From a virus, in the IMG/VR virus record IMGVR_UViG_3300036771_000090, positions 1 to 64,000 of that record: a stretch of 64,000 bases of DNA, one strand, 5' to 3'. A program made the translations under genes and the position numbers. Below the pieces are notes generated by a model that was given only the letters and a program-made list of their open reading frames with translations, ran no database searches and was not told the DNA's origin. This document shows, piece by piece, positions 20,522 through 64,000 of the stretch. Each line of letters starts with the position of its first letter. Within the stretch, counting starts at the first letter, position 1.

Positions 20522-21131
20522 ATGGCGGCTGACCGAAGAGCTGGTTCCGTACGTCTCCACCGCGGAGTTCCACCAGGACCGGGAGCGCGCTCCGCACCTG
20601 GAACAGGAGTGGCACCGGCCCCGGCTGGAGACGGCCGCTTCCTTCGTCCGGGAGATCGCGGCGAAGTGGCCGCGGGATGAGCGGATGCCGACGGTCTCCG
20701 ACCTGGGATGCGGAGACGGGGGTCTGCTGTCGCTGCTGAAGGACTGCCCCGACATCATCGCGGCCTGGGGGTACGACTTCTCCCCCGCCAACGCGGCTGG
20801 CTGGACGGAGCGCGGCGTCAACGCCCGTGCGCTGGACGTCTTCAGAGCCGACTGGCACCGGGTGCACCCGGGTTCCATCGTCGTCATGACCGAAGTCCTG
20901 GAGCACATCGCGGAACCGCACAGCGTGCTGACCCGGCTGTCCATGAACAGGCTGACCCGCTACCTGGTGTGCTCCAGCCCGCGCAACGAACGTCCCGGCA
21001 ACCACAGCCCGGAGCACGCCTGGGCCTGGGACATGGACGGGTACGCGGACATGATCAGGGGAGCGGGCTGGAGGATCGAGCGCCACCAGGGCGTCGGCCT
21101 GTTCCAGGTCGTGATGGCCAGTTCTGTCTGA
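20514..21131 (+). CDS. Class I SAM-dependent methyltransferase
   Basis: DLGCGDG, EVLEHIAEP. Confidence 0.88.
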   Translation: MAEWRLTEELVPYVSTAEFHQDRERAPHLEQEWHRPRLETAASFVREIAAKWPRDERMPTVSDLGCGDGGLLSLLKDCPDIIAAWGYDFSPANAAGWTERGVNARALDVFRADWHRVHPGSIVVMTEVLEHIAEPHSVLTRLSMNRLTRYLVCSSPRNERPGNHSPEHAWAWDMDGYADMIRGAGWRIERHQGVGLFQVVMASSV

Positions 21132-22049: not shown

Positions 22050-22116
22050 CCGGCCATCCAGTTCTCCGGCTTCCGGCCGCTATCATCAGCCGCAGGTGAC
22101 AGCGGGAGGCGCGCGC

Positions 22117-27889: not shown

Positions 27890-29683
27890 GTGCCCGAACA
27901 GCTCGAAACCCACACTCTCTACCCCGCCCCGGCTGATCTGACCACGATCCCCGACGCGGAACTGTCCGAAATGGAGACCGTGTTCACCGCGGAGTTCGAC
28001 CGCGTGTACGGCCTCCAGGACTACACCGAAGACCATGTTCAGTACGGCCTGGGACTCCGGGAGAACCTGGACCGGGTCAAGTCGGAGCTGGCCGCGCGTG
28101 ACGTCCGCGCCAAGAGTGCGGCGGCTGCGGCCAAGCTGAAGGCGGACCGCCAGATGGCGGAGCTGAAGGGCGCGATCCACGGACCGGCCGAAGGAACCCC
28201 GGAGGCTGCTCAGGTAGCCGTCGTGGACCAGGAGAAGGCCAACGCCCGGCTGGCCGAAGTCGTGGCCGCCGCGGTGACCGAAGGCTTCGTGGGACTGCTC
28301 GGTGGCGAAGCCGGCAAGGAGATCGTGAAGGGCGCGCGTGGCGGGGCCGTCGTGGCGTCGCTCGGTGCCACCGCCCGGCTGGCCCCGAAGCCGCCGGCCG
28401 GCGTCCAGCAGCGGCTGGCCATCACCGCGTCCGGTTCCGGCCAGGAGCTGCCGAACCTGGCGGCGCTGGCCGCGGAGTTCACCCGGATGGCCAACGGCAT
28501 CCCGATCTCCCGGAGCGGCAAGAACGCCCCCCAGCACCCCGTGGCCCGTATCCGGAACGAGTTCGCGCACACCGTGGACGACCGGATGCGCCCGGCGGAG
28601 ATCGAAGAGATCTGGCGGGAGATGGTCAACCGCGACAGCTCCGACGCGCTGGTGGCCGGCGGTGGCTGGTGCGCCCCGTCAGAGATCATGTACAACTTCT
28701 TCAACATCGCGGACATGGACGGAGCGGTGGACCTGCCGACCGTCGGTGTCACCCGTGGTGGCATCCGGTACCCGGTCTCCCCCGCCATCGGGGACGTGTT
28801 CTTCCAGAACGCGGGCAGCAACCCGGCGTCCGGCTTCGGCTCCTTCGCCTTCCCGTTCAGCAACGCCTCCGACCCGTGGCTGTGGACGGAGACGGACGAC
28901 ATCTCCACCGTCACCGGCTCCGTGAACAAGCCGACCCTGCGCGTTCCCTGTGCCAGCTTCGGGGAGCAGCGGCTGGAGGCGTACGGCCTCACGGTCACCG
29001 CGGGCAACCTGACCGACAGCGCCTGGCCCGAAGCCACCCAGAACTTCATCCGGCTCCTGCGGATGGCCTACGCGCACGCGATCAACGCCCGGCTGCTGTC
29101 CCTCATGGACACCGCCTCCGGCGGCGCGACGACCATCGGCGCCATCACCACCGACCCCGCCGCACCGCGCATCATGAACGCGGTGGAGCTGGCGGCCGTG
29201 GACTACCGGGCGAAGTACGCCATGAACACGGACGCGGTGCTGGAAGTCGTCCTGCCGTACTGGGTCAAGAGCGTCATCCGTTCCGACCTGGCGTACAAGA
29301 CGGGCATCGACTCCACGGAGCTGCTGGCCGTCATCGACAGCCAGATCAATGCGTTCTTCACCGCGCGCAAGGTCCGCGTCCAGTGGGTCAACGACTACCA
29401 GGTGCGCGGAGCCAACCAGCCCGGCTCCAGCTCCAACCTGACCACCTGGCCGACCACCGTCAACTTCATGGTGTACGCGGCCGGCACCTTCCTCCACGGC
29501 ACCGGGCTCCAGCTCGACCTGGGAGTGGTCCGGGACTCCGTGCTCAACGCGGAGAACGACTTCACCGCGGCATGGGCCGAAGAGGCGCACCTGATCGCCA
29601 TGGTGGGCCACGCCAGCCGGAAGTACACCGTGGCCTTCCAGGTCAACGGCGCCAGCGGTGGCGGCACCACGGCACGCGTCTGA
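27890..29683 (+). CDS. Major capsid (hexamer) protein with N-terminal scaffold-like region
   Basis: DALVAGGGWCAPSEIMY...LPTVGVTRGG, characteristic of Rosebush/cluster B-type MCP; GGAGG RBS. Confidence 0.85.
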   Translation: MPEQLETHTLYPAPADLTTIPDAELSEMETVFTAEFDRVYGLQDYTEDHVQYGLGLRENLDRVKSELAARDVRAKSAAAAAKLKADRQMAELKGAIHGPAEGTPEAAQVAVVDQEKANARLAEVVAAAVTEGFVGLLGGEAGKEIVKGARGGAVVASLGATARLAPKPPAGVQQRLAITASGSGQELPNLAALAAEFTRMANGIPISRSGKNAPQHPVARIRNEFAHTVDDRMRPAEIEEIWREMVNRDSSDALVAGGGWCAPSEIMYNFFNIADMDGAVDLPTVGVTRGGIRYPVSPAIGDVFFQNAGSNPASGFGSFAFPFSNASDPWLWTETDDISTVTGSVNKPTLRVPCASFGEQRLEAYGLTVTAGNLTDSAWPEATQNFIRLLRMAYAHAINARLLSLMDTASGGATTIGAITTDPAAPRIMNAVELAAVDYRAKYAMNTDAVLEVVLPYWVKSVIRSDLAYKTGIDSTELLAVIDSQINAFFTARKVRVQWVNDYQVRGANQPGSSSNLTTWPTTVNFMVYAAGTFLHGTGLQLDLGVVRDSVLNAENDFTAAWAEEAHLIAMVGHASRKYTVAFQVNGASGGGTTARV

Positions 29684-37532: not shown

Positions 37533-37795
37533 ACCTGATCTATTACGAAATGCTTCAGCGCCTGGACGTCGGGGAGAGCGAAAACCCTGAAGACGTGCGC
37601 CGGGCATTCGACAACGAAATGGGTGTGACCGGCTGGGCCACGCCCGGCCGTACGAAGGTCTTCGAGCGGACCCCCGAAGACGAAGGCGCACCGCTGTGGT
37701 GGCACGGCGCGGAGGAGGCGTCCCAGAGCTTCCTGGCGTCGTTCGGCATCGTCCTCCAGGACGAAGCACCGGTGGAGGGGAGTCCAGGTGGCTGA
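37410..37795 (+). CDS. Tail assembly chaperone -1 frame extension (GT)
   Basis: Overlapping -1 frame ORF (PYEAIFRL...) without good RBS, ending at TMP start. Confidence 0.65.
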
Positions 37796-40700
37796 CGAAG
37801 TCATCGGGCGCGGGCTGATCGAGATCCTTCCCGACTTCAAGAAGTTCGGGAAGGAGCTGGCCAGCTCCATGCGGACGGCCCGGTCCCAGCTCGATGGGTC
37901 CGCGGCCGGCCTCCGTGCATCCGCTGGAACGATCTTCACGTCCATGTCGAAGGTCGGCAAGGGCGTGTCCGTCGTGGGCATCGGGGTGGCTGCCGCGTCG
38001 GTGAAGATGGCCGGCAACTTCCAGGCGGAAACCGCCGTACTCCAGACCGCAGCCGGGGAGACTGCGGCCAATCTGGGCAAGGTGCGCGCCGGCATCCTGA
38101 ACATCAGCAAGGGCACCGGGACCGGCCTCCAGAACCTCACCGACGGCATGTACACCGTGGAGAAGGCCGGGTACCGCGGGGCCCAGGGTCTCCAGGTGCT
38201 GAAGGCCGCTGCCCAGGGCGCCAAGGAGGAGAACGCCAAGCTCTCCGACGTCACCAACGCCATGACGTCCGTGATGGCCAGCTACCACCTGAAGGCCACC
38301 GACAGCACACGTGTCATGAACGCGTTGAAGACCGCTGCCGGTGAAGGCAAGATCACCATGGAGGAGTTCTCCGGCGCGCTGTCCACCGTGCTGCCGATCG
38401 CCTCCGCCAACAAGATCAGTTTTGACCAGGTGGCCGGCGCCGTGGCGACGCTGACCCAGCACGGGACGTCGGCCCGGGAGGCGACGCACGAACTGTCCGC
38501 CACCATCCGCCAGCTTGCCGCCCCGAACAACGTCGCGGTGAAGGAGATGGCCCGGTTCGGGCTCACCGCGCAGGACGTCTCCCTGAATCTGGGGAAGAAG
38601 GGTCTGACCGGCACCATTGATGAACTGGTCCAGGTCGTCCTGGCCAAGATGGGGCCCAGCGGGAAGGTGCTGCTGTCGTCCTTCAACACGACCAAGCAGG
38701 CCGGCGACGCGCTGAACGCCATGCTCCAGAAGATGCCGAAGTCCCTCCAGGATCTGGCGAAGCAATACCAGTCCGGGAAGATCGCCTCCGACGACTGGAA
38801 AATGGCGATCAAGGGTCTTCCGGTAGACCAGAAGAACCTGATCAACCAGTACGTGACCCTGACCAACAAGAACAAGGGCTTCTCCGACGAACTCCGCAAG
38901 GGCGGCCCGGCCACCAAGACATTCACCGAAGCAATTAAGAAAATGTCCGGTGGCGCCATCGGCCTGAACACCGTGCTCCAGCTCTCCGGGGAGAGCCAGG
39001 CCGGATTCAACGAACGCGTGAAGAAGGTCGGGGAGTCCTACAACAACGCGTCGAAGGACGTCGAAGGGTGGAAGACCACCCAGGGACTGCTGAACACCCA
39101 GATTGCCCGGATGAAGCAGACCGTCCAGGTTCTCATGATCCAACTGGGCACCAAGCTGATTCCCATCCTGTCCGCCACGATCACCTGGCTGTCGAAGAAC
39201 CGGGATGTGGTCTACGTCCTGGCCGGCGCCATTGCCGGTGTGCTCACCCTGGCAGTGGTCTCCTTCGCGGCCACCACCGTGATCTCTGTGGCCAAGATGA
39301 CAGCATCCTTTGCCAAGCTGGGTGCCTCCGGAGCCATGCTGGGGGTGAACCTGGTCCGCGGCTTTGCCAGTGCGTCCGCTGCCGCGTCCAGCTCCACCGG
39401 TCTGGCCGGCTCCCTGGGGGGCTCGATCCGGAAGGCGCTCTCCCCGTCCACGTACGCCTCCGCCTTCTCCACGCTGCGGCTACGCGGGATGTACGCCGTA
39501 GATGGCCTGAAGAGCGGGTTCCGCTCCGTCGGAACGGCTGCTGCCAGCATGGCCACCACGGTCAAGGGTGCGGCGGTCTCCGCCGGGACGTCGGCCTGGA
39601 GCGGGATCACCTCCGGGGTGAGCGCGGTCGGGACCGCCATGAAGACGTCCGCCATCGCCACCCGGGACTTCGCAAAAGCCCAGTACGAATCCATCGTGGC
39701 CAACACGAAGGCGGCCGTGGCCTGGACGATCAGCAAGGCGAAGACGCTTGCCCAGGCCACCGCAACCGCTGTCGCCACCGCAGCGCAATGGCTCTGGAAC
39801 GTGGCCATGGACGCCAACCCGATCGCGTTGATCATCATTGGTATCACGGCGCTGATCGGCGTGATTATCCTGATCGCCACGAAGACGACATGGTTCCAGA
39901 CGATTTGGAAGTACACCTGGGGAGCCATAACCACCGCATTCAGTGCAACGGTGAATTTCATAAAGGACCACTGGAAACTCATCATTGCAATCATTCTCGG
40001 TCCGATCGCGCTTATCACGCTTTATGTGATAGACCACTGGAAGCAGATTTCCAGCGGATTCGCGGCGATCATCTCCTATATCCGGAACCACTGGGTCCTG
40101 ATCGTCTCGATCATCACCGGGCCGATCGGCACGGTGACCCTGTATGTGATCAGGCACTGGAACCAGATCATCGACGGGGCGAAGTCGATGATCAGTTCCC
40201 TGGCCGCCTGGTTCCGGGGGCTGCCGAACCGGGTCTCCGGCGCGGTCGGGAAGCTGTCGCGCACGCTCTACAACGCCGGCTCCGATCTGGTGGGCGGGCT
40301 GCTCAGCGGTGCCCGAAGCAAACTGAGCGCCCTGGGGAGCTGGGCCAAGGGAGTCAAGGACTCCGTGGTCGGAGCCATCAAGCACGTGTTCGGGATCAAG
40401 TCCCCGTCCACCGTGATGATGGGGCTTGGCGGTCACATGATGACCGGTCTGCTGAAGGGTCTGCTCCGCGGTAAGGGCGTGCTCAACTCCGTGGTGAAGG
40501 GCATATTCCATGGTCCGCTCGATGCCGCTAAGGCACTGGTCAAGAACGGCATCGGAGTGGCCGGCTTCCTGGGGAAGAACGCTGCGAAGCTGACGTCCCA
40601 GCTCTTCGGGGACATCGGCAGTACGCTCTTCGACTCCGGCAGCGGGAACGGGGTCGGTGGCTCCAACCAGACCCTGGGCAAGAAGATCATGCTGGCGATG

Positions 40701-41207
40701 GGCTTCCAGGCACGGGAGTGGAACGCGCTGAACCGGCTGTGGATCGGGGAGTCCGGCTGGCGCACCAACGCGCTCAACGCCAGCTCCGGTGCCTACGGCA
40801 TCCCCCAGGCGCTCCCCGCTTCCAAGATGGGCAGCGCCGGATCGGACTGGCGGACCAACCCCGCGACCCAGATCGAATGGGGTCTGAACTACATCCGGTC
40901 GCGGTACGGGACCCCCTCCTTCGCCCTGTCCGCGTGGCTGGACCGGTCCCCGCACTGGTACGACAACGGCGGGATGCTCCCGAAGGGCCTGTCCCTGGTC
41001 ATGAACGGGACCGGAGCGCCGGAGCGCATCCGCAACGCCCGGCAGGAGGCGGCGCTACAACGCGGCGGTTCCGGGGTCGTGATCAACCTGACCGTGGTGA
41101 ACAAGGGGGTCATAGGCAGCAAACAGGACGCGCTGAACTTCCTGGTGGAGGCGCTGGACACCCTGGGCCGCCAGAACCGTATCCCGCGCAGTGTGACGGG
41201 AGGCTGA
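37788..41207 (+). CDS. Tape measure protein (TP901-type core) with C-terminal lytic transglycosylase domain
   Basis: Long Ala-rich helical ORF; AMDANPI; HW repeats; ESGWRTNALNASSGAYGIPQALP...WGLNYIRSRYG...HWY. Confidence 0.93.
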   Translation: MADEVIGRGLIEILPDFKKFGKELASSMRTARSQLDGSAAGLRASAGTIFTSMSKVGKGVSVVGIGVAAASVKMAGNFQAETAVLQTAAGETAANLGKVRAGILNISKGTGTGLQNLTDGMYTVEKAGYRGAQGLQVLKAAAQGAKEENAKLSDVTNAMTSVMASYHLKATDSTRVMNALKTAAGEGKITMEEFSGALSTVLPIASANKISFDQVAGAVATLTQHGTSAREATHELSATIRQLAAPNNVAVKEMARFGLTAQDVSLNLGKKGLTGTIDELVQVVLAKMGPSGKVLLSSFNTTKQAGDALNAMLQKMPKSLQDLAKQYQSGKIASDDWKMAIKGLPVDQKNLINQYVTLTNKNKGFSDELRKGGPATKTFTEAIKKMSGGAIGLNTVLQLSGESQAGFNERVKKVGESYNNASKDVEGWKTTQGLLNTQIARMKQTVQVLMIQLGTKLIPILSATITWLSKNRDVVYVLAGAIAGVLTLAVVSFAATTVISVAKMTASFAKLGASGAMLGVNLVRGFASASAAASSSTGLAGSLGGSIRKALSPSTYASAFSTLRLRGMYAVDGLKSGFRSVGTAAASMATTVKGAAVSAGTSAWSGITSGVSAVGTAMKTSAIATRDFAKAQYESIVANTKAAVAWTISKAKTLAQATATAVATAAQWLWNVAMDANPIALIIIGITALIGVIILIATKTTWFQTIWKYTWGAITTAFSATVNFIKDHWKLIIAIILGPIALITLYVIDHWKQISSGFAAIISYIRNHWVLIVSIITGPIGTVTLYVIRHWNQIIDGAKSMISSLAAWFRGLPNRVSGAVGKLSRTLYNAGSDLVGGLLSGARSKLSALGSWAKGVKDSVVGAIKHVFGIKSPSTVMMGLGGHMMTGLLKGLLRGKGVLNSVVKGIFHGPLDAAKALVKNGIGVAGFLGKNAAKLTSQLFGDIGSTLFDSGSGNGVGGSNQTLGKKIMLAMGFQAREWNALNRLWIGESGWRTNALNASSGAYGIPQALPASKMGSAGSDWRTNPATQIEWGLNYIRSRYGTPSFALSAWLDRSPHWYDNGGMLPKGLSLVMNGTGAPERIRNARQEAALQRGGSGVVINLTVVNKGVIGSKQDALNFLVEALDTLGRQNRIPRSVTGG

Positions 41208-46145: not shown

Positions 46146-47120
46146 ATGACGGTCAGTATCCCGGGCGTGGACTATGCCTGGTCACATCCCGGCGGAGCAT
46201 CGCTCCAGGCGGCCGGGAAGAAGTTCGTCTGCCGGTACCTGGGCCAGGACGACACGAAGATCCTGAAGCGCGCGGAAGCCGACGACCTGGCCGCGCACGG
46301 GATCTGGTCGGTGGTGGTCTACGAAGATGCCGCGGACCGGGCACTGGGAGGCAGGGCCGTAGGGATCGGGGACGCGCAGCGCGGCCTTGCCCAGGCGCGT
46401 GCGGCCGGGATGCCGGAAGACCGGCCGATCTTCTTCGCGGTGGACTTCAACGCCACCGAAGCCCAGCAGACCGCGATCAACGCCTACCTGGACGGGGCCG
46501 CCTCCGTCATCGGGAAACAGTGGACCGGCATATACGGCGGATACTGGCCGGTGAAGCGCGCGCTCGATGGCGGACACGCCACCTGGGCCTGGCAGACCGT
46601 GGGCTGGTCCGGTTCCAACCGGGACAGCCGGATGGTCATCCTCCAGCCGGCCACCACCGTGAAAATCAACGGTGTGACCTGCGACAACGACACAGCACTG
46701 TCCGACGACTTCGGCCAGTGGAAGCCCGGCATCCTCCCGGAGGCAGCAATGGCAGCAGTAGACCTCACCCCCGCTTCGGTGAACGCGGTGGCCGCCGCGG
46801 TGACGAAGAACCTCCTGGCGTCGCTCCACGACGACCCGACCACCGCGGACAACTCCACCAAGTCGCTCGGCGCGATCTGGTGGGACGACGGCAAGAACTC
46901 GTTCCAGGCCAACACCGCCATCACCAAGGTGGCCGTATCGGTGGCCGCGCTCCAGACCGCGGTCAGCAAGCTGGGAACCGGCGTGCCGGCGGACTTCGTC
47001 ACGTCCGTTCTGGCCAAGCTCGATGCGCTCCAGGCGGCCGTCACCGATCCGTCGGGACTGCTGGACCAGATCCGCACGGAGCTGGAGTCCTACCAGATCA
47101 CCATCACGAAGGAGAGCTGA
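46146..47120 (+). CDS. Endolysin, DUF1906/Rv2525c-like glycoside hydrolase
   Basis: GVDYA...FVCRYL...PIFFAVDF...TGIYGG...WQTVGWS; AAGGAG RBS. Confidence 0.88.
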   Translation: MTVSIPGVDYAWSHPGGASLQAAGKKFVCRYLGQDDTKILKRAEADDLAAHGIWSVVVYEDAADRALGGRAVGIGDAQRGLAQARAAGMPEDRPIFFAVDFNATEAQQTAINAYLDGAASVIGKQWTGIYGGYWPVKRALDGGHATWAWQTVGWSGSNRDSRMVILQPATTVKINGVTCDNDTALSDDFGQWKPGILPEAAMAAVDLTPASVNAVAAAVTKNLLASLHDDPTTADNSTKSLGAIWWDDGKNSFQANTAITKVAVSVAALQTAVSKLGTGVPADFVTSVLAKLDALQAAVTDPSGLLDQIRTELESYQITITKES

Positions 47121-47448: not shown

Positions 47449-48531
47449 GTGCGAGTTACGGTCTTTCCCGCTGATGTGTACGGGTGTGGGTATTTCCGCC
47501 TGATCTGGGCTACGGGACTGCTGAAGGAGGCAGGCCACGACATCCGGATGTACCGCCCCCAGGACCGGCGGCTGGAAGTCCACGTGGACTCCGACGGGGA
47601 GACGGTACGGGACGTCAGCCTGGACACCGATGTGGTGGTCCTCCAGCGGATCACCCACAGCTTCATGGCCCAGGCCATCCCGATCCTCCGTGCGAAGGGG
47701 GTTGCGGTGGTGATGGACGTGGACGACGACCTGTCGTCCATCCATCCCGCGAACCCCTCGTACGCCGCGATGCACCCCCGCAACGAACGGCGTGTCGATC
47801 CCGGCGCCGTCCAGCCCCGGCGGCACTCCTGGCGGCACCTGAACGCGGCGTGCCGGGACTCCACGCTGGTGACCGTCTCCACACCGGGACTGCTGGACGT
47901 CTACGCCCGGCACGGCCGCGGACGGGTGATCTACAACCACTTGCCGGAACCGTACTTCACCACGGAGCACACCGATTCCGACGTCATCGGCTGGCCGGCT
48001 GCACTGGTCTCCCACCCGGACGACCCGTCAGCCGTAGGAGGCGCTGTGGCGCGCCTGGTGACCGACGGAGCGGCCTTCCAGGTGATGGGGGACCCCACCG
48101 GCTGCGGGACGGCCTTCGGGCTCTCTGCCGACCCTCCAGGGGCCCGGAACATCACAACCCACCAGTGGCCGTCGAAGGTGGCGGAACTGGGAATCGGGAT
48201 CGCCCCGCTGGCGGACACCCGGTTCAACGCGTGCAAGTCGTGGCTGAAGCCGCTGGAAATGTCGGCCCTGGGTGTCCCCTGGGTGGCGTCCCCGCGGCCG
48301 GAGTACGTCCGGCTGCACACACGGGGAGCGGGCATCCTGGCGGACACTCCGCGGCGCTGGTACCGCGATCTGGACCGGCTGCGGCGCTCCCCGCAGATGC
48401 GCGCGGAACTGGCCGGGCGCGGCCGGGAAGTGGCGGAGACCCTACGGCTGCGCGACAACGCCTGGCGCTGGATGGAGTGCTGGGAGGAGGCGTACCGCAT
48501 CCAGCGCGCCGGCTCCGGGGTGGCCGCGTAG
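47449..48531 (+). CDS. GT-B (GT4-like) glycosyltransferase
   Basis: GCGYFRL, VVMDVDDD, VTVST, IGIAPL..TRFNACKS.LK.LE..ALGVP.VAS. Confidence 0.88.
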   Translation: MRVTVFPADVYGCGYFRLIWATGLLKEAGHDIRMYRPQDRRLEVHVDSDGETVRDVSLDTDVVVLQRITHSFMAQAIPILRAKGVAVVMDVDDDLSSIHPANPSYAAMHPRNERRVDPGAVQPRRHSWRHLNAACRDSTLVTVSTPGLLDVYARHGRGRVIYNHLPEPYFTTEHTDSDVIGWPAALVSHPDDPSAVGGAVARLVTDGAAFQVMGDPTGCGTAFGLSADPPGARNITTHQWPSKVAELGIGIAPLADTRFNACKSWLKPLEMSALGVPWVASPRPEYVRLHTRGAGILADTPRRWYRDLDRLRRSPQMRAELAGRGREVAETLRLRDNAWRWMECWEEAYRIQRAGSGVAA

Positions 48532-54644: not shown

Positions 54645-55099
54645 CGCGCACCGGCCCACAGGGGCGCCTGGTGCAGCGGGCGGACAGCGGCCACGCGGAC
54701 CGGACGCGGCCAGGAGCCGTGCGCCACGGTGAGCGGGGTCGGGCGGTCCGCCTTCGCCAGCTCCGCGGCACGCCGGGTCTCCGCCGCGGTGGGGACGTTG
54801 GAACGGGGCTTCGACGCCGGCACCGGGTAGCGGTGACGGGACTTGCTGCCGTGCACGGTGTAGGACACGATCCGGTCCAGCCGGAAGGTACGCGGCTCCG
54901 CGGTCGGGCGGTCGGCCGTCGGCCGGTCCATCGCACGGAAGTAACGGTCCCCGTCCTGGTTCTTCGTGATCATCCAGGGCTCCACCACCCGGCGCGTCAC
55001 GGACCCGTTGGCACGGGTGTAGATGATGGTCACGGGGCGCCGGAGCTTCATGGCCCGGACGATGTTCCGGAAGAGCTTGTCCTGGTCGGTGGCCTGCAT
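54641..55099 (-). CDS. Stand-alone WYL-domain protein
   Basis: VTIIYTRANGSVTRRVVEPW...YFRAMD...PRTFRLDRI; no N-terminal HTH. Confidence 0.85.
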   Translation of the reverse strand: MQATDQDKLFRNIVRAMKLRRPVTIIYTRANGSVTRRVVEPWMITKNQDGDRYFRAMDRPTADRPTAEPRTFRLDRIVSYTVHGSKSRHRYPVPASKPRSNVPTAAETRRAAELAKADRPTPLTVAHGSWPRPVRVAAVRPLHQAPLWAGAR

Positions 55100-55182
55100 C
55101 GGGTCCTTCTTTCCTGGTTCCTGTGCTGCTGTGGTTCCATCATCCCGCGTGTACTGATCTATGTCAAGTGATGACACAGATC
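55100..55182 (-). promoter_or_regulatory. Conserved promoter-leader module P2 with palindromic operator
   Basis: TTGACA (55167-55162)-17-GATGAT; GATCTATGTCA-N5-TGACACAGATC. Confidence 0.8.
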
Positions 55183-55636: not shown

Positions 55637-55715
55637 GCTGTCCTCTTCCTGGGTTCCTGTGCTGCTGTGGGTTCTATCGTCCCGCATCCAGTCGTCTATG
55701 TCAAACTATGTTCAT
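55637..55715 (-). promoter_or_regulatory. Conserved promoter-leader module P3
   Basis: TTGACA (55704-55699)-17-GACGAT; CACAGCAGCACAGGAACCCAGGAAGAGG. Confidence 0.8.
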
Positions 55716-56767: not shown

Positions 56768-57732
56768 GAGACAGCCTCCAGGCCGCAGGAACCAGCAGTG
56801 ATCCCGGTAGCTGCGGTGATGAGCGACCGGGCGAACAGGGGGGGTACGACATTGCCGGCAAGGGTGTACCGCTGTCCCGCGTTGCCATGGATGACCAGAT
56901 CCCGCCTGAGTCCGTTAAGAGCGGCGGCTTCGGCGACGGTAGGGCGCAAGTGCGGGAGACTGCGCTCTTTCCACCGGTCGGTTCCCATCGCTTTGCGCAT
57001 GGCCTGGCGGGACCCGTTGCCGAATGGCTCCGCGCCGCCGGTACTTGTTCCGCCGCTGGTAACGGTGGGTGCGGGGCGCTGGGTGTAGCCCCAGCCGATG
57101 ATGTCGGCCATGGCGACCAGCGGGGGCTGGCCGGTCCCGCCGTGGGTGGGTTCGGGCAGGATGACCCCGTGCATCCGGGATGCCAGGAGAACGGCGCGGG
57201 GCCGGTGCGATCCGAGTCCGAACCGGGCCGCGTCAAGAACTCCGGTGGTCACGGAGTAACCGTGGTTCCGGAGGATGCCGGCGTAGTGCTCCCACACGGA
57301 AAGCACGCTGGGCACCTGTTCCATGGCGATCCACTCGGGTTCGAGATCATGTATCCACCGCATGGGTTCAGCGGTGAGAATGCTCCGGGAGTCAAGGCAC
57401 CGGGCCCCGTGCTGTGCACGGGTGTCGTGGCCGCTGGCCAGGTCGTCAATCGCTGAGCAGATGTGCGGAAGGTCGTGGCGGCCTTTCCCGCTGCCCATCC
57501 TGGAGAACGGGGGGCACGGCGGGGACCAGATACCGCCCCAGGTACGGCCACGGAACGGCGCGGTGGGGTACTGGCTCACGTCACAGCGGATGGTCGGATG
57601 CCCGGCGCCGGCCCGGGTGCGGCAAGCGCTCTCACTGAGTTCCAGCCCGGTATCAGACAGGCCAAGCCCGCGGAGGGCTTCGGACCAGCCGATGCCCGCG
57701 AAGCCGTGGACGATACGGCCGGCGGCCGTCAC
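56764..57732 (-). CDS. DNA cytosine-C5 methyltransferase (orphan)
   Basis: FAGIG (I), SPPCPPFS (IV), MEQVP (VI), HRPR (VIII), AGNVVPP (X); GTG start coupled to upstream stop. Confidence 0.88.
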   Translation of the reverse strand: MTAAGRIVHGFAGIGWSEALRGLGLSDTGLELSESACRTRAGAGHPTIRCDVSQYPTAPFRGRTWGGIWSPPCPPFSRMGSGKGRHDLPHICSAIDDLASGHDTRAQHGARCLDSRSILTAEPMRWIHDLEPEWIAMEQVPSVLSVWEHYAGILRNHGYSVTTGVLDAARFGLGSHRPRAVLLASRMHGVILPEPTHGGTGQPPLVAMADIIGWGYTQRPAPTVTSGGTSTGGAEPFGNGSRQAMRKAMGTDRWKERSLPHLRPTVAEAAALNGLRRDLVIHGNAGQRYTLAGNVVPPLFARSLITAATGITAGSCGLEAVS

Positions 57733-58889
57733 CGGCCCGGCTCCGCCCACTGGGCACCGATACCGGCCAGCCAGGCGGTGACCAGCTCCTCCGCCATCCG
57801 CTGCGCGGTCAGTGCGTCGTTGTGGCCTCTCAGGTGTTCCGGGACGTAGACCGGGAGAACAGTGCTCACCACGTAGTTCGGATCGGTCCGCCGGGACTTC
57901 CAGCTCAGGGAGACCAGTTCGACACCGTTGGAGCGGCCCCGGTACCCGGACCCTTCGGTCCTCCTCCAGACGATCGGGGTCCCCGGGTACGCCTCCTCCA
58001 GCGCGTCGGCCAGGAACTGGCGGCGCCCCAGACGCTGCTCCTCCACGGTCCGGATCACGCGGATCTTCACCGCGTCGCGGTACACGGCGGAGTACGACGT
58101 TCCGGGCCGCCCGTCGCCCGGAAGCCGGTAGCTGACCGAGTCGTCCGTGATCTGCTCGATCCAGCCGGTGGCCTTCGAGCCGGACAGTTTCCAGGACAGC
58201 TCCACTTCGTCCCCCTCCTGGACAGCCTGGGCCGCCCGGGGCGCCGGGTTGCTCTCGCTGCACCGGGTGTGGCCCAGGTCGTAGCAGTCGTGGAAGGGGA
58301 GCCGGTCCGCGTCCGTCTTGAAGTCCGCGATGAAGGCCGTACCGTCCGCCAGCGTTCCGGCCAGGTCGGGCTGGTACTCCGTCAGCGGGTACGTCCAGGA
58401 GGCGCTGAAGACGTCTCCGCAGATCTTCACCACGTCGTCCCCGGTCTTCCAGGCGTGACCGGGCTGGACCTTCCAGACCTCCGGGGCACCGTTCACCTGG
58501 ACGGTGATCTTGTTGGCTCCCCGGACACCGGTGACGCTGCCGCGCGGAGTGGACGGGGTGGTCCCGAAGAAGTGCTGCGACAACAGATACGCCTCCGCCG
58601 TGGCGGAGATCTCTTCGTGGCTGGCCGCCAGGCGCTCCACTTCCTCCAGCGCCTCCGCCGGGGTCAGCCGGCCAACGGCGTCCGCCGGACGCTCGGTGCC
58701 GGCCGCAGCCCAGCCGGCCGCGGTGAGGTAGTGGCCCATCTCGCCGTCGTGCCGGCCGTACTCCACCAGCCCGCGGTCCATCAGCGCCACCCTGGTTCCG
58801 GTCCTTCCGGAGTTCAGGTACTGCCATCCGCGGTTCCGCGCGAACGCGTCCAGCATGTTCATCATCACGGGGGAGAGCTTCCTGGCCAT
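57729..58889 (-). CDS. Cassette paralogue 1: wHTH-like N-terminus + RPAD linker + variable C-terminus
   Basis: KLSPVM...TRVALMDRGLV...LTAAGW...RPADAVGRLTPAEALE. Confidence 0.7.
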   Translation of the reverse strand: MARKLSPVMMNMLDAFARNRGWQYLNSGRTGTRVALMDRGLVEYGRHDGEMGHYLTAAGWAAAGTERPADAVGRLTPAEALEEVERLAASHEEISATAEAYLLSQHFFGTTPSTPRGSVTGVRGANKITVQVNGAPEVWKVQPGHAWKTGDDVVKICGDVFSASWTYPLTEYQPDLAGTLADGTAFIADFKTDADRLPFHDCYDLGHTRCSESNPAPRAAQAVQEGDEVELSWKLSGSKATGWIEQITDDSVSYRLPGDGRPGTSYSAVYRDAVKIRVIRTVEEQRLGRRQFLADALEEAYPGTPIVWRRTEGSGYRGRSNGVELVSLSWKSRRTDPNYVVSTVLPVYVPEHLRGHNDALTAQRMAEELVTAWLAGIGAQWAEPGR

Positions 58890-59021
58890 CAGTTCCTTCT
58901 TCCTGTTCCGCCGGTGGTGGGGACCGGCCGCCGTGCGACCCCGGTACGTGGTGTCCCCGGTCGATGCTCCCGGCATCTCGTTGGCGTCCGGTCCCCGTCC
59001 CGGTCTCCCGGGCACAGCTCT

Positions 59022-59062
59022 ATCTTCCCGTACTCCAGTGTCTATGTCAAATGATGTCCAAC
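59022..59062 (-). promoter_or_regulatory. Conserved promoter module P4 (long structured leader 58890-59020)
   Basis: TTGACA (59050-59045)-17-GAAGAT. Confidence 0.75.
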
Positions 59063-59109
59063 GCTGTGAGCTGCGACAATGAAACCAGTTCATGATTCTT
59101 TGACACAGG

Positions 59110-59139
59110 GAAGCCCCCGGACGGCTGTCCGGGGGCTTC
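59110..59139 (-). terminator. Terminator-like hairpin
   Basis: GAAGCCCCCGGAC / GTCCGGGGGCTTC. Confidence 0.8.
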
Positions 59140-59157
59140 AGGGGCGGTACGGCTGGG

Positions 59158-60279
59158 CTACTCCTCCAGCGCGTCGTCCAGTACGCGCCGCAGCGCGCGC
59201 AGGTCGTCCAGCGTCAGCCCCGGGCAGCCGGGCGTCCGGCCGATGATGATCCGGCTGCCGCTTTCCTGGTCCAGGCTCTCCAGCACGGCGTGGAAGTTGT
59301 CCACGACGTCCGGGACGTGCTCCGGGACGGTCTCCGGGACGGTCTCCTTCTCCTCCACCGGCAGCGCGGTTCCGGACAGGTCGGTCTTCACCGCTCCGGC
59401 GTACGTCCGGTACCCCTGGCTCTTCAGGTGGTCGAAGTGCTCCTGATGACCGGCGCACAGGAGCGACACCTTCCCGTCGGACCACACCACCCGGACCACC
59501 GCCGGGGCTCCGCAGCCGGTCCCGTTGCCGCTGGTGGTCTCCGGCACCTGGCCGGCCGTGCAGCGGGGGTTCTCCTTCACGCACACCATGTCCCCGTGGC
59601 CGGCCTGGAGCATGGCGTCCCGGGTGGCCCAGGCCGTCCCGCACTCGCACTCCACGGATTCGTCCGCCTGCTCCGGCTCCAGGTCGTCCACGAACTGCCG
59701 CGTGTCACTGCTCCAGGGGATGGTGTCGGTCGGGTCCATGTGGACCGTGACGTACGTGCGTCCGTGGTTCGGGTGACCCGGATTGTCCACCACGCCACGG
59801 TTCTCCTGCCGCACCGTTCCCGTCCGGCCGCGGTAGCCGGTGTTCGCGTCCAGACGGATCTGGACCCGGGTCCCCATCGGCCACGATTCGTCCAGGGCCG
59901 GGACGTCCATCACCGTGACGCGCGCCTTCGGGTCCCAGTGCATACCATCCCCGGGGCGGATTCCCCGGCAGCCGGGGAATCCCCAGCCGTTCAGCCGCTC
60001 CGCGTACTCCAGCGCTTCGGCCGGCGTCATCCTGCCGTCGTCCGCCGGACGCCCGGTCCCGGACAGCTCCTGGACCAGGGTCCAGCCGGCGGGGGTGAGG
60101 ACCGGGAACAGCCAGGCGTCCCCGTCCTTGTCGGTCACGTTGTGCTGGTAGGTGATCAGACCCCGGTTGATCAACGCGTCTTCCGTGCGGTTGTTGCAGT
60201 AGGCCACGGTCCCCTGGTACCCGTTCTCCGCGGCGTGCCGGAGTTCTGCTTCCATCTTCGGGGAGATGCGAACGGCCAT
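59158..60279 (-). CDS. Cassette paralogue 2
   Basis: RISPKM...TEDALINRGLI...LTPAGW...RPADDGRMTPAEALE; SH3-like and Cys-rich C-terminal parts. Confidence 0.75.
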   Translation of the reverse strand: MAVRISPKMEAELRHAAENGYQGTVAYCNNRTEDALINRGLITYQHNVTDKDGDAWLFPVLTPAGWTLVQELSGTGRPADDGRMTPAEALEYAERLNGWGFPGCRGIRPGDGMHWDPKARVTVMDVPALDESWPMGTRVQIRLDANTGYRGRTGTVRQENRGVVDNPGHPNHGRTYVTVHMDPTDTIPWSSDTRQFVDDLEPEQADESVECECGTAWATRDAMLQAGHGDMVCVKENPRCTAGQVPETTSGNGTGCGAPAVVRVVWSDGKVSLLCAGHQEHFDHLKSQGYRTYAGAVKTDLSGTALPVEEKETVPETVPEHVPDVVDNFHAVLESLDQESGSRIIIGRTPGCPGLTLDDLRALRRVLDDALEE

Positions 60280-60363
60280 CGGGTCCTTCTTTCCTGGGTT
60301 CCTGTCGTGCTGTTGGTTCCATCTTCCCGCACCTGCTTGTCTATGTCAAGTCATGTCATAGAC
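60280..60363 (-). promoter_or_regulatory. Conserved promoter-leader module P5
   Basis: TTGACA (60349-60344)-17-GAAGAT; GTCTATG..CATAGAC arms. Confidence 0.8.
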
Positions 60364-60382
60364 CATTTGCACAGGATGCAAA

Positions 60383-60415
60383 CGGCCCCCGGGAGGGTTG
60401 TCCTCCCGGGGGCCG
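60383..60415 (-). terminator. Terminator-like hairpin
   Basis: CGGCCCCCGGGAGG / CCTCCCGGGGGCCG. Confidence 0.8.
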
Positions 60416-60431
60416 CCGTGCTCCGGCCGGG

Positions 60432-61319
60432 TCAGCTCTTCCAGGGGCCCATGACGGCCACCATCTCCCCCTTCTCCAGGGTCCGGACGTTCCCGTCCGC
60501 GCGGGTGATGACCACCAGCTCCGGCGTGACCTCCCTGCCGTCGCGCCAGACGCTGTACTCCGCGGTCTTCAGCTCCACGGATGCGATCGTCCAGGCGGCT
60601 TCGAATCCGGGGCGGACGGCCCAGTACCGGTACCCGGGCTTGAAGTCCTCCGCGGCCAGCTCCGTGATCGCGGGCTTCTCCGCGGCCGGCTCCATGTCCT
60701 CCAGCCGGACGTACACGATGGTCTGGTGGTCGTCTTCCCGGACCGCGTGCAGACCGTTGCGCCAGTAGGACACGTACCGGGCGGTGAAGGCCGGCTGGGG
60801 AACCCAGGTCCGGTTCCAGGTGTCGAAGTGCGACTGCCGGACGATGACCTGGTCGTCCCTGGTGTAGGTGCGCTCTCCCGCTGCCGGGTACGCCTCCGCC
60901 AGCGCCTCCTCCACGGTCAGCCGGTCAGCGTCTTCCGCAGCACCCGGGTACAGGGTGCGAGCGTCCAGGATCGCGTCAAGTTCGGAGTAGCTGTACCCCG
61001 TCATGCCGTCCCGCCAGGCCGCGTCCGCCAGCGCCTCCTCCACGGTCAGCCGGCCGGTGTCCGCCGGACGGTCCACGCCGTGCTCTGCCAGCCACGACCA
61101 GCCCGCCATGGTGATGACCAGGATGTGGCTGGCACCGTACGTCGGCTTCGGGTGGTCGGTCAGCTCCAGCAGACCACGGGAGACCAGCGCCTTCGCGGTG
61201 GTGTTCCGGCCGTTGAAGACGACCCGGTCACTGCCGTACTTCGCCTGGGTGGCGGCCACGTTGGTCAGGTACTGCCCCATGGTCTGGCTGAGCTTCGGGG
61301 ACTTGGCGGTGACGATCAT
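60432..61319 (-). CDS. Cassette paralogue 3 (linker motif duplicated)
   Basis: KLSQTM...TAKALVSRGLL...ITMAGW...RPADTGRLTVEEALA...DRLTVEEALA. Confidence 0.75.
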   Translation of the reverse strand: MIVTAKSPKLSQTMGQYLTNVAATQAKYGSDRVVFNGRNTTAKALVSRGLLELTDHPKPTYGASHILVITMAGWSWLAEHGVDRPADTGRLTVEEALADAAWRDGMTGYSYSELDAILDARTLYPGAAEDADRLTVEEALAEAYPAAGERTYTRDDQVIVRQSHFDTWNRTWVPQPAFTARYVSYWRNGLHAVREDDHQTIVYVRLEDMEPAAEKPAITELAAEDFKPGYRYWAVRPGFEAAWTIASVELKTAEYSVWRDGREVTPELVVITRADGNVRTLEKGEMVAVMGPWKS

Positions 61320-61402
61320 CGGGTCCTTCTTTCCTGGGTTCCTGTGCTGCTGTGACTCCATAGTTCCGCGAATCCTGGTCTATGTCAAGTCATGTCATAG
61401 AT
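61320..61402 (-). promoter_or_regulatory. Conserved promoter-leader module P6
   Basis: TTGACA (61388-61383)-17-AACTAT. Confidence 0.8.
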
Positions 61403-61414
61403 TATTTCCCAGGA

Positions 61415-61458
61415 CACAGGCCGGCCCGGGAGGACAGTTCCTCCCGGGCCGGCCTGTG
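61415..61458 (-). terminator. Terminator-like hairpin
   Basis: CACAGGCCGGCCCGGGAGGA / TCCTCCCGGGCCGGCCTGTG. Confidence 0.8.
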
Positions 61459-61462
61459 CTGG

Positions 61463-62137
61463 TCAGACCGCTTCCACCGATATGGTCTCCAGCTCCGGGA
61501 TAGATCCCAGTTCGGGACGCACCGCAAGCAGCTTCCGCGCGATGCGGCGGACCGCGGGGAAGGACGGGACGGGCGGGTTTGCGTGCAGACCGGACAGCGT
61601 GCTGAACACGTAGGTGTACGCCTCATAGTCATCCTGGGTGACGCGTCCGGTGTGGTACTGGTCCTCCAGACTGCCCAGCGTCAGCCTGCTCATACGCAGG
61701 ACATCGCAGTCTTCGCAGCGCAATTCAAGGTGCCGGTTGCCGCTTCCGGTGTAAGCGATGTCGCACATGATCCGGTCTGACGCGTTGTGCATACGACAGT
61801 CCGTCACGGTACGGGCGGTCCGGTCTTCCACGCTGTCCAGCGCCTCTTCCACGGTCAGCCGACCGGCGTCCGCCGGGCGGTCCATGCCGTATGCGGCCTT
61901 CAGGAAGGCCCAGCCGTCCAGCGTGACGGTCCAGAGCAGCGTGGTGTCGTGGACCCGGTACTCACCCAACGCACCCAGTTCCGCGTTCGTGGACCAGCGG
62001 ATCATCCCGCGGCGCTCCAGCGCCAGGAGCGTCCGCTTCTCCGGCTCCAGGTGCGCCCGGTAGGCTCCGCGGCCCAGGTAGACCAGCGCCTCCTCCATGG
62101 TCTGGCTGAGCTTCAGGGACTTGGCGGTGGCGGTCAT
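61463..62137 (-). CDS. Cassette paralogue 4
   Basis: KLSQTM...TLLALERRGMI...VTLDGW...RPADAGRLTVEEALD; Cys-containing C-terminus. Confidence 0.75.
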   Translation of the reverse strand: MTATAKSLKLSQTMEEALVYLGRGAYRAHLEPEKRTLLALERRGMIRWSTNAELGALGEYRVHDTTLLWTVTLDGWAFLKAAYGMDRPADAGRLTVEEALDSVEDRTARTVTDCRMHNASDRIMCDIAYTGSGNRHLELRCEDCDVLRMSRLTLGSLEDQYHTGRVTQDDYEAYTYVFSTLSGLHANPPVPSFPAVRRIARKLLAVRPELGSIPELETISVEAV

Positions 62138-62220
62138 CGGGTCCTTCTTTCCTGGGTTCCTGTGCTGCTGTGACTCCATAGTCCCGTGAATCCTGGTCTA
62201 CGTCAAGTCATGTCATAGAT
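62138..62220 (-). promoter_or_regulatory. Conserved promoter-leader module P7
   Basis: TTGACG (62206-62201)-17-GACTAT; near-identical to P6. Confidence 0.8.
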
Positions 62221-62239
62221 TCTTTCCGGGACACGGCGA

Positions 62240-62267
62240 AGCCCCGGGGGACCGGGCCCCCGGGGCT
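62240..62267 (-). terminator. Terminator-like hairpin after transfer/spread operon
   Basis: AGCCCCGGGGG / CCCCCGGGGCT. Confidence 0.7.
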
Positions 62268-62281
62268 GCCTGTACCACGTC

Positions 62282-62695
62282 TCACCTGCGGCGCTTCCCC
62301 TTGCCCTTCGGCTCCTCCAGGGTCTCCCGGAGTGACTTGATCGCGGCAGCGCTTCCGATCATCAGCACGGCCACCGCTCCGACGGCCGCAGCCGCCGCGA
62401 TGACCAGCGCCACCACGGAACCCAGGACAGCGATCAGGACCGGCGCCAGGATGACCGCGATCACGGCCAGACCGCCGGTGATGACCAGTCCGCCGAGAAG
62501 GACGAAGAAGTACGGGACGTACCGGTCCAGGACGTTCTGACCGGGATTCTGGTTCACCGGCGCCGTGTCGATCACCGGCGCCGCGTAGTGGTGGTGGATG
62601 TGGATGACCTGGTCTCCTCCGGGGATCTGGCCCGTCTCCCCTGCCGAAGGCAGGTAGGTGGTCCGGTGGACCACCGCCTTGCGCTGCTCTTCCAT
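62282..62695 (-). CDS. Membrane protein, SpdD-like plasmid spread protein
   Basis: Pro/His N-terminus, long hydrophobic hairpin, basic tail; downstream of traB-like gene. Confidence 0.5.
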   Translation of the reverse strand: MEEQRKAVVHRTTYLPSAGETGQIPGGDQVIHIHHHYAAPVIDTAPVNQNPGQNVLDRYVPYFFVLLGGLVITGGLAVIAVILAPVLIAVLGSVVALVIAAAAAVGAVAVLMIGSAAAIKSLRETLEEPKGKGKRRR

Positions 62696-62701
62696 GCTTC
62701 C

Positions 62702-62803
62702 TCACATCCAGTGCGACACGGCCCAGACCGCTGCCAGGAACAGCAGAACGATCACGGCCAGGGTGCGGTTGGCACGCCACCGGGCCGACCGCCTGTGACT
62801 CAC
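62702..62803 (-). CDS. 33-aa single-TM peptide
   Basis: Manual translation MSHRRSARWRANRTLAVIVLLFLAAVWAVSHWM; GTGA coupled. Confidence 0.45.
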   Translation of the reverse strand: MSHRRSARWRANRTLAVIVLLFLAAVWAVSHWM

Positions 62804-63003
62804 GGGCGGGCCCGGCGCCGGACCACGGCGTACAGCGGCGCGGTGATGATGGCGTCCGCCACGACGATGAACACGATGGCCAGGAAGGTGGCCGCCACCG
62901 GACTGTTGACCTTGTCGCCCGGCAGCAGCGAAGCCACCATGGCGATCAGCAGCAGCACGGCCGCCGCGTGGACGAAGTAGATTATTTCCTTGATCGCTCG
63001 CAT
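62800..63003 (-). CDS. Small two-TM membrane protein (Spd-like)
   Basis: AAGGAAG RBS; two hydrophobic segments. Confidence 0.55.
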   Translation of the reverse strand: MRAIKEIIYFVHAAAVLLLIAMVASLLPGDKVNSPVAATFLAIVFIVVADAIITAPLYAVVRRRARP

Positions 63004-63076
63004 GATCGTTTTCTTCCTTCTCGGGTGTCTGACGCGGGTTGTGACGGATCGGGAGAGTGTCTTAGGTCGGAGCCGG

Positions 63077-63173
63077 TGTCAGCGGTCTGACAGGCGTTTC
63101 TGACAGCCTTCTGACAAGGGCTGACACCGGCTCTGACATGCGGTTCTGACAGGTACTGACACCGGCTCTGACA
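63077..63173. repeat. Phased CTGACA direct-repeat array (candidate clt/TRS locus)
   Basis: CTGACA at 63087, 63100, 63111, 63121, 63133, 63146, 63156, 63168; inverted copy at 63077. Confidence 0.8.
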
Positions 63174-63179
63174 GGGTCT

Positions 63180-64000
63180 TCAGTTGGCCCGGTGGCCGTT
63201 TCTGATACGGGGGCGGACGACGTACGGGGGCTTGCCGTTGCTGGTCTCCAGGCGGCCGGCTTCGGTGAGGCGCTTCAGCTCCGCGTACACCCACTGCCGG
63301 GTCCGGCCGGTGATGCCCGGAAGCTCCGACAGTGCTTCGAAGGTGATTTCCGCGGCGCCGCCTGCCTCCAGTTCATCGATCTTGGCTTCCAGGGCCGCGC
63401 GTGCGTCCGCGGTGGACATCCGGCCGCCCGCGGGCTCCGGACGGAGGCTGAAGGACCCGGCAAATCCGGGGTCCGGGATGGGTTCGGTCACGTCGATCAG
63501 GGCTCCGTCTTCGTCGGGGACCGCGGTCAGGTCCAGCGCCTGCTCCCGGTCGTTGTCGGTTTCGCCGTACCAGTTCACCGGGTCTTCGTCCGGTGCCGGG
63601 ACGTCCAGGGGGACCGGGGGCAGACCGGCGGTCAGCTTCGAGTCCGGCACCTGGATGCCGGCCCCCAGGCACATGGCCGTTCCGGGGTCCAGAACGGCCC
63701 AGAAGGGCCGGCTGGCGTCCAGTTCGGCACGCTTCTGGGTCCTGGTCAGCCGCAGTGCACGGCCTTCCACCGCCCACAGCGTCCGGTCGGTCCCGATCGA
63801 CTCCGCGTAGTGCTTGCCGGGGAAGTCGGCACCCCACTTGGTGGGGTCTGCTCCGGCTTCCCGGGTGGTCGCGGACAGGGTGAACTTGGCGTCGTAGTCC
63901 TCCCGGCAGCCGAAGGCGAGTGCGTTGGCGAACAGACCGCGGGTCCGGCGGTCGATGTTCTGGTTGTGGGCGGTCTGCATGGACGCGAAGATGGCGAAGC
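63180..64000 (-). CDS. traB: Streptomyces TraB-like (FtsK/SpoIIIE-family) conjugal DNA translocase, C-terminal part
   Basis: ALAFGC...DAKFTL...EAGADPTKW...PGKHY, acidic Pro linker, C-terminal wHTH GRTRQWVYAELKRL.EAGRL; 5' end off window. Confidence 0.75.
   Translation of the reverse strand, partial: FAIFASMQTAHNQNIDRRTRGLFANALAFGCREDYDAKFTLSATTREAGADPTKWGADFPGKHYAESIGTDRTLWAVEGRALRLTRTQKRAELDASRPFWAVLDPGTAMCLGAGIQVPDSKLTAGLPPVPLDVPAPDEDPVNWYGETDNDREQALDLTAVPDEDGALIDVTEPIPDPGFAGSFSLRPEPAGGRMSTADARAALEAKIDELEAGGAAEITFEALSELPGITGRTRQWVYAELKRLTEAGRLETSNGKPPYVVRPRIRNGHRAN

Follow-up and report, generated by a model that had tools for sequence, protein, structure and literature searches.

The IMG/VR virus record IMGVR_UViG_3300036771_000090 is a 77,804 bp entry rated as 100 % complete, and its first 64,000 bases (bases 1–64000, hereafter the window; contig and window numbering coincide) were analysed together with those genes of interest that lie past the window end. 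At the end of the window we identified a minus-strand locus resembling the transfer (tra) regions of Streptomyces plasmids. It comprises a traA-like gene, a traB homologue, a clt-like array of short repeats, and small membrane-protein genes followed by a terminator-like hairpin, all carried on the genome of a tailed phage. From upstream to downstream, the features of the locus are as follows.

65822–66883, minus strand (past the window end): 353-amino-acid membrane protein with four transmembrane (TM) helices; homologues in 12 relatives
65242–65658, minus strand (past the window end): traA-like gene, 138 amino acids; NCBIfam NF041213 plasmid_TraA, E 8.3e-10
63180–65228, minus strand: complete traB gene, of which the 3′ part (63180–64000, 272 codons) lies in the window
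63077–63173, minus strand: clt-like array of eight direct TGTCAG copies (traB strand), one inverted copy and 17–18 nt inverted repeats, 7 bp past the traB stop
63045–63075, minus strand: conserved box, CTCCGACCTAAGACACTCTCC on the traB strand, between the array and the first membrane-protein gene; a CYSYGRCCTWRG-like sequence occupies the same position in most relatives
62800–63003, minus strand: 67-amino-acid protein with two TM segments and an LLPGDxVN motif; tblastn homologues at the same position in at least six relatives, the motif being visible in more
62702–62803, minus strand: 33-amino-acid open reading frame (ORF) with one TM segment and a GTG start, coding uncertain; the only homologue is a weak match, at E 0.005, in the closest relative
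62282–62695, minus strand: 137-amino-acid membrane protein with an N-terminal helix, an HxHxHHHY motif, two to three TM segments and a basic tail
62226–62273, minus strand: GC-rich terminator-like hairpin at the end of the tra/membrane-gene operon (−37.5 kcal/mol, z −3.0 versus shuffles)

The traB ORF is cut by the window end and encodes 682 amino acids in the full record. Residues 26–673 of the protein align with positions 4–634 of the 639-position NCBIfam profile NF041214 (plasmid_TraB) at E 4.7e-117 and 392 bits. An AlphaFold2 model, for which 25 clade members were present in the alignment, had a mean predicted local distance difference test score of 78.7 and predicts four N-terminal TM helices (29–133), a beta domain, an ATPase core (276–525), a linker without ordered structure and, at the C-terminus, a domain of the winged helix–turn–helix type (wHTH; 606–671). 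Walker A (GVPNSGKT) and Walker B (VMIDIEE) motifs are present, and their residues K287 and E387, respectively, are invariant in the 25 clade members. The first-pass annotation of this DNA, made from the letters of the sequence, had recognized a TraB-like C-terminus with a wHTH and pointed to the upstream part as the place to look for an FtsK-type ATPase and membrane segments; both the full-length TraB and the expected upstream domains are found. Foldseek searches with the model returned the FtsK motor 6t8o first (E 6.7e-13), with the TcpA coupling protein and EccC next in rank, and a sequence search of the PDB gave a weak FtsK match only (E 0.003).

Comparison with known TraB proteins placed this homologue in a clade of its own. 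By tblastn it matched 50 actinomycete plasmids, 45 of them from Streptomyces, at 27–42 % identity, and it is 27–29 % identical to the named plasmid TraBs (pSN22, pWTY27, pCQ3, pSVH1 and pJV1 type), from which it forms a separate clade. A search of 5.8 billion proteins recovered approximately 50 clusters of this distinct clade at 39–69 % identity, with identity falling to 28 % for the named plasmid TraBs. The same protein used as a tblastn query on 50,697 GenBank phage records gave no match at E 1e-5, and no cultured phage on record there carries the clade.

Past the traB stop, CTGACA as read on the plus strand occurs in eight direct copies between 63087 and 63173, with spacings of 13, 11, 10, 12, 13, 10 and 12 bp, and in one inverted copy at 63077–63082, which extends by one the eight repeats already noticed in the first reading. 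Nine of the 15 copies in the window fall inside these 97 bp and six are scattered across the remaining 63.9 kb; for the whole genome the proportion is 9 of 18. Shuffled sequence yields 28.8 copies per window, so that approximately 0.04 copies would be expected per 97 bp. In published clt loci, short direct repeats are clustered, often together with inverted repeats, at the 3′ end of the transfer gene or past it, and these loci are bound by the wHTH of the cognate TraB (PMC4447253, PMC3583192), the known direct repeats recognized by TraB being 8 bp long (PMC4447253). The array described here has short direct repeats, associated inverted repeats and a position just past the 3′ end of traB. In pWTY27, clt consists of four TGACACC repeats that are bound by its TraB homologue (PMC3583192); reading the plasmid sequence placed all four directly after the transfer gene and revealed a TGACA core in common with our array, in the opposite orientation relative to traB.

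Arrays at the same position were observed in relatives of this genome, with motifs that vary between them (TGTCAG, TGTCACGG, CTGATCAG, GTGATCAC, TGTCGG/CGTCAG and others). A crude k-mer test found a top 6-mer with at least four copies within approximately 190 bp past the traB stop in 16 of 28 loci. Other 200 bp windows of these loci seldom gave such counts, and for most loci in which the array is clear the motif was rare or absent over the rest of the locus (approximately 20 kb). These patterns fit a cognate pair of TraB and binding site that co-evolves, and because the position of the site is fixed and the motif is unique to it within a genome yet variable between relatives, such a protein–site pair fits them, whereas neither a dispersed operator nor a sigma-factor element does. 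Recognition helices of the form RxR...EL tended to occur with TGTCA-type motifs and those of the form TP...NL with TGATCA-type motifs, an informal tendency that is confounded by relatedness. The conserved box at 63045–63075 was considered as a promoter and rejected, as its spacing to any −35-like hexamer misfits and no sigma-70-type promoter was scored.

Downstream of the array, the three small membrane ORFs that had been proposed from the sequence are present at 62282–63003 and are hydrophobic and translationally coupled: the start of the 33-amino-acid ORF overlaps the stop of the 67-amino-acid ORF at 62800–62803, and a gap of only 6 nt (62696–62701) precedes the 137-amino-acid ORF. Homologues of the 137-amino-acid protein were found in 15 related loci, 0.2–0.9 kb downstream of traB. 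This family displays a conserved His-rich motif (HVHIHHHY-like) just ahead of the TM segments, which may bind metal. None of the three proteins belongs to a Pfam, NCBIfam or PHROG family, the 137-amino-acid protein giving a sub-threshold Pfam match only (DUF6234, E 0.0075). Their earlier description as Spd-like is therefore retained for position, topology and coupled operon form next to traB and not as a statement of membership, since no family or profile match links their sequences to Spd families.

Upstream, the traA-like gene lies directly before traB with a gap of 13 nt, its match to NF041213 scoring 39 bits, short of the cut-off of 80, and the traA–traB order is that of pSN22, pCQ3 and pWTY27. 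The 353-amino-acid membrane protein encoded further upstream also matched no Pfam, NCBIfam or PHROG family. Its nearest neighbours in the ESM Atlas included DUF2637 clusters (0.88 by features; TM scores 0.35/0.47), which we regard as a lead only; DUF2637 was used as a stand-in for SpdB2-like proteins, to which it is presumably linked. Alignment by hhalign to the DUF2637 protein encoded upstream of traA in pWTY27 gave a probability of 0.65 % only, and PF10935 had no match in the five genomes examined. The gene for the 353-amino-acid protein and its upstream region are densely covered by GGACA/TGTCC boxes, of which approximately 70 occur on both strands within 1.5 kb (65878–67356), an enrichment of about sevenfold or more; the rest of the genome has approximately 4 per kb. 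Of 27 loci, this genome counted, about 21 had GGACA as the top or near-top enriched 5-mer upstream of traA–traB, regardless of the downstream motif. A few relatives carry other upstream pentamers (GCAAC, CCGGA and GAGAC).

The same contig encodes a terminase, portal, MuF-like protein, major capsid, head–tail adaptor, major tail, tape measure and endolysin, confirming the complete virion operon reported earlier and providing the full structural and lysis module expected of a phage-plasmid. Its principal markers are as follows.

17191–18606, plus strand: large terminase, T4-type; Terminase_6N and Terminase_6C
22096–23913, plus strand: portal protein; phrog_776, E 4.4e-128
27890–29683, plus strand: major capsid protein, 597 amino acids, used as lineage marker; phrog_777, E 4.7e-109
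37788–41207, plus strand: tape measure protein; phrog_2723, E 4.8e-61
46146–47120, plus strand: endolysin; phrog_13480, E 3.4e-28

The capsids of the closest cultured phages are approximately 33 % identical over approximately 72 % of the protein, with Gordonia phages in the top rows and Mycobacterium phages the commonest matches, and the label of a cluster-B-like head thus applies only approximately. Replication genes are of phage type and include a primase–helicase–PolA fusion, a DEAD helicase, RuvC, an exonuclease and a topoisomerase-like protein; in the fusion (6584–11203), primase–helicase and family-A DNA polymerase domains are joined in a single ORF of 1539 amino acids. The MuF-like head protein (23906–27118, 1070 amino acids) matches an RNA-ligase/2H-type PHROG over its first 200 amino acids (phrog_2659, E 7e-25). 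Genes for sugar epimerases/dehydratases, glycosyltransferases and methyltransferases are scattered through the window (15739–16965, 20514–21131 and 47449–48531) and beyond it (contig 67909–69838), and are common to the isolate-borne relatives described below. Adjacent to the tra locus, 57729–62220 holds four tandem paralogues that have a common N-terminal module and differing C-termini, each preceded by a repeated promoter-leader sequence, with further copies of that sequence at 55087–55181 and 55646–55704.

The ends of the record share an exact repeat of 127 bp, from which we concluded that it is a circular assembly of approximately 77.7 kb, answering the question of circularity raised in the first pass. 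The T4-type terminase suggests headful packaging, and a permuted genome likewise assembles as a circle; circular assembly therefore does not discriminate between a plasmid and a permuted lytic genome. At 0.66–0.69, GC content stays level throughout the region, without a step at the tra genes.

We then considered whether the tra genes belong to the phage. Scanning viral contigs with the single TraB query yielded no loci, whilst an alignment-based query yielded 30 IMG/VR contigs of 29–99 kb with the same TraB clade. A homologue of the capsid (53–73 % identity) was present in 21 of the 29 TraB-bearing records searched; of these records, 20 have a completeness rating of at least 90 %, and every one of them has the homologue. 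Pairwise distances for TraB and capsid across 21 genomes were strongly correlated (Mantel r 0.90), a value reached in 0 of 5000 permutations; the statistic is inflated by shared ancestry, the shared ancestry of both genes being the very point tested. In the closest relative, the membrane ORFs of that genome are directly followed by a counterpart of the gene that comes next downstream here, so synteny runs across 62220–62280 and nothing ends there: the interval in which an att site or assembly junction might have been suspected holds the hairpin instead. Chromosomal TraBs of Embleya and Yinghuangia are 30–34 % identical and have no other phage gene in common within 10 kb either side, for which reason they were taken as outgroups of plasmid type or of the actinomycete integrative and conjugative element (AICE) type.

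Given capsid co-occurrence in 20 of 20 near-complete genomes, co-varying distances, continuing synteny and a circular contig, the tra module is, on the evidence of the sequences compared, a native and ancestral core part of a tailed Streptomyces phage lineage. The alternative that the module derives from a separate AICE or plasmid, misjoined in assembly or lying beside an integrated prophage, is hardly credible: the contig closes on itself, GC content is even, and the TraB clade and capsid occur together and co-diverge in near-complete relatives from many samples as well as from isolates. Readings as an assembly chimera or an adjacent element were thus rejected, as far as such data can show, on co-occurrence, co-divergence and synteny.

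The locus shares its overall plan with the tra regions of the Streptomyces plasmids pSN22, pWTY27, pCQ3, pSVH1 and pJV1, in which traA is followed by a traB that encodes TM helices, an FtsK-like ATPase and a wHTH, and in which direct repeats past the traB stop and small translationally coupled membrane genes occur (PMC3583192, PMC4447253). It differs from them in the low identity of its TraB (27–29 %), in having no GntR-type TraR/KorA and no detected Spd similarity, and in its carrier, a tailed phage of 77.7 kb in place of a plasmid of 10–15 kb. In one of these plasmids, pWTY27 (NC_013667.2, 14 kb), a gene annotated as 'phage major capsid protein' lies less than 1 kb downstream of the traB–clt region (locus L060, 5810–7270). 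SpdB2 homologues have been noted on actinophages (Thoma et al. 2015, PMC4447253); the present genome has more than a spread protein, namely a TraB motor together with a TraA-like gene and a clt-like array.

A precedent in kind is the Streptomyces element pZL12 or phage ZL12, for which Zhong et al. reportedly described a plasmid-phage lifestyle in 2010. Its sequence (GQ919031) resembles the present genome in combining a siphovirus-type virion with an FtsK/SpoIIIE-like conjugal transfer locus in one Streptomyces element, the latter having been cited as a tra locus (PMC3583192), and it differs in encoding ParA, ParB and an integrase besides the FtsK/SpoIIIE-like protein pZL12.71c, none of the first three being found here. 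The two belong to unrelated lineages: pZL12.71c has no BLASTP similarity to our TraB, the genomes are linked by four weak protein matches only, and capsid, portal and transfer ATPase are not common to both. The precedent invoked in the first-pass annotation therefore stands as an example of the kind and not as a relative. In the literature searched on phage-plasmids with TraB, we found no description of a TraA–TraB–clt set as the core module of a phage lineage.

Relatives of the same lineage are carried by cultured Streptomyces. Plasmid pS1D4-14.2 (NZ_CP041606.1, Streptomyces sp. S1D4-14) and a contig of strain NRRL S-455 encode TraBs approximately 42 % identical and capsids 55–58 % identical to those described here, and share with it genes for a glycosyltransferase, RuvC and an exonuclease; past traB they, too, carry repeats in an array. 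They differ in being approximately 20 kb larger, in carrying ParA and a tyrosine recombinase, in having cultured carriers and in a TGTCGG/CGTCAG array. Both belong to a subclade of 76–99 kb genomes that accounts for most of the ParA genes (5 of 30 records) and tyrosine recombinases (9 of 30 records) found; pS1D4-14.2 is filed as a plasmid, and the NRRL S-455 contig, 95.7 kb long, has terminal repeats. TraB and flanking genes are also shared by a third contig from an isolate, NPDC126497. The ParA-bearing subclade shows a further match to the TraB wHTH (residues 590–673, 36 % identity) approximately 450 bp downstream of traB (locus L041, 12322–12576), which may represent a stand-alone wHTH paralogue; TraB matches in two pieces were also observed in loci L020, L024, L028, L029 and L040.

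Of the relatives with completeness ratings of at least 90 %, 11 resemble this genome in that neither ParA nor a tyrosine recombinase was found. In four of these genomes the check extended to ParB and the GntR family, likewise without a match. The first-pass annotation had suggested looking for parAB, korA or an integrase, and this search came out negative: no tyrosine integrase, large serine recombinase, ParA-type ATPase (AAA_31) or ParB (ParB_N) was found in this genome, nor a match to PF00392, the GntR family. No plasmid Rep was identified among the proteins scanned, a scan that left out some small ORFs. DNA of this genome occurs in soil metagenomes only among sequencing runs, from three studies, with no RNA run listed. 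The proposal of a conjugative plasmid-phage is hence upheld in one half, a native TraB, clt-like array, membrane genes and virion module being present on one circularly assembled replicon, and not in the other, the plasmid state, for which integrase, ParA, ParB and GntR regulator are all missing and replication is phage-type. A plasmid state is plausible for the 76–99 kb sister subclade, whilst persistence as a plasmid, as a pseudolysogen or through a purely lytic cycle are all among the possible states of this phage.

Taken together, we consider that this locus probably represents an intact double-stranded DNA transfer module of the Streptomyces type (probability about 0.58), in which TraB would bind the array and pump double-stranded DNA across septa or hyphal contacts, partnered by the membrane proteins. 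The four N-terminal helices would anchor TraB in the membrane, where the FtsK-like ring would form, and the C-terminal winged helix would bind the TGTCAG array beside its own gene. The ATPase would then pump the unprocessed double-stranded phage genome through cross-walls or into a touching hypha, assisted by the co-transcribed membrane proteins, and the outcome would be a route of phage spread that requires neither virion nor receptor. DNA binding, pumping, transfer and spreading are functions that we infer for the module.

Several observations weigh against this interpretation. The TraB score of 392 bits lies below the equivalog cut-off of NF041214 (800 bits), at which distance function equal to that of plasmid TraB is not guaranteed; given this score and its distinct clade, we filed the protein as a TraB homologue and not as an equivalog. 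A clear array was returned by the k-mer test in only 16 of the 28 related loci, and the GGACA field, conserved whatever the downstream motif, could be the real target of TraB or could have some other function. Pfam, NCBIfam, PHROG and hhalign do not demonstrate that the membrane ORFs encode Spd proteins. Most plasmids need a GntR-type repressor to tolerate traB (PMC4447253), and the TraR/KorA repressor of this type was also absent in three of the four relatives tested. Because integrase, ParA and ParB were not found, a stable donor state for this phage is not evident.

A rival reading is that of a stable conjugative plasmid-prophage resembling pZL12, which would reside as a circular plasmid in lysogens, mate through TraB and occasionally be induced to form virions. 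The existence of that lifestyle is reportedly proven by pZL12, and the sister subclade with ParA and/or a tyrosine recombinase, the plasmid status under which pS1D4-14.2 is filed within a complete genome of Streptomyces and the terminal repeats of the NRRL S-455 contig all speak for it. For the genome studied here it is nonetheless rather unlikely, as this genome and 11 of its near-complete relatives have neither ParA nor tyrosine recombinase, ParB, large serine recombinase and GntR regulator are also wanting in this genome, the replication genes are those of a phage, its DNA comes from soil-metagenome runs only, and the 127 bp overlap is equally expected of a permuted lytic genome if packaging is headful. 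We tentatively put forward a different possibility, doubtful but not fanciful, in which a plasmid-derived TraB/clt motor serves as a viral movement system throughout the lineage, including in those members that have no genes for lysogeny or plasmid maintenance. Naked double-stranded phage genomes would then be pumped through cross-walls and hyphal contacts during infection or carriage, and the mycelium would be colonized cell to cell without an extracellular stage, comparable to the action of plant virus movement proteins.

Two further explanations assign other roles to parts of the module, and we judge both to be unlikely. The CTGACA array could be an operator or promoter for the membrane genes, or a field for a phage regulator, with the TraB site being the GGACA field or nonexistent; its position just upstream of the membrane-gene operon and beside the conserved box, and the resemblance of cTGACA to a −35 hexamer, are compatible with this. 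The hexamer is however largely restricted to the array and absent at six of seven putative early promoters (the seventh, placed at 55167, has a copy 44 nt away at 55211), no promoter was scored, and motifs at the same site differ between relatives more widely than a sigma-factor element would tolerate. Slightly less probable still is that TraB has been co-opted for segregation, pushing copies of the phage or prophage through closing septa into compartments or spores in the manner of FtsK or SffA and so replacing ParAB, with the array as a loading or centromere-like site. ParA and ParB are indeed absent whilst TraB is kept universally, the fold is FtsK-like, and dense fields of short boxes near traB are reminiscent of centromeres; against this, the full plasmid-type set is retained in plasmid order (TraA, TraB, the clt position and coupled membrane genes), and the ParA-bearing subclade keeps TraB as well. 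We know of no precedent for a TraB co-opted in this way.

Streptomyces grows as a compartmented mycelium, and the plasmid TraB/Spd machinery is, to our knowledge, the only well-studied way for DNA to cross its septa. The retention of TraB machinery through long divergence in a phage lineage would imply that selection has favoured another way of spreading, one in which neither virion nor receptor is needed. Phage-plasmid surveys score conjugation by relaxase and mating-pair models (PMC7969092), which would presumably miss TraB-type systems, and such elements may therefore be under-counted. As cultured carriers of relatives exist (S1D4-14 and NRRL S-455), the question is accessible to direct test. 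If the transfer module functions as proposed, the loss of a receptor would not stop spread within a colony, and the view of phage spread, host range and resistance in filamentous antibiotic producers would change accordingly; the line between conjugative elements and viruses would likewise be blurred.

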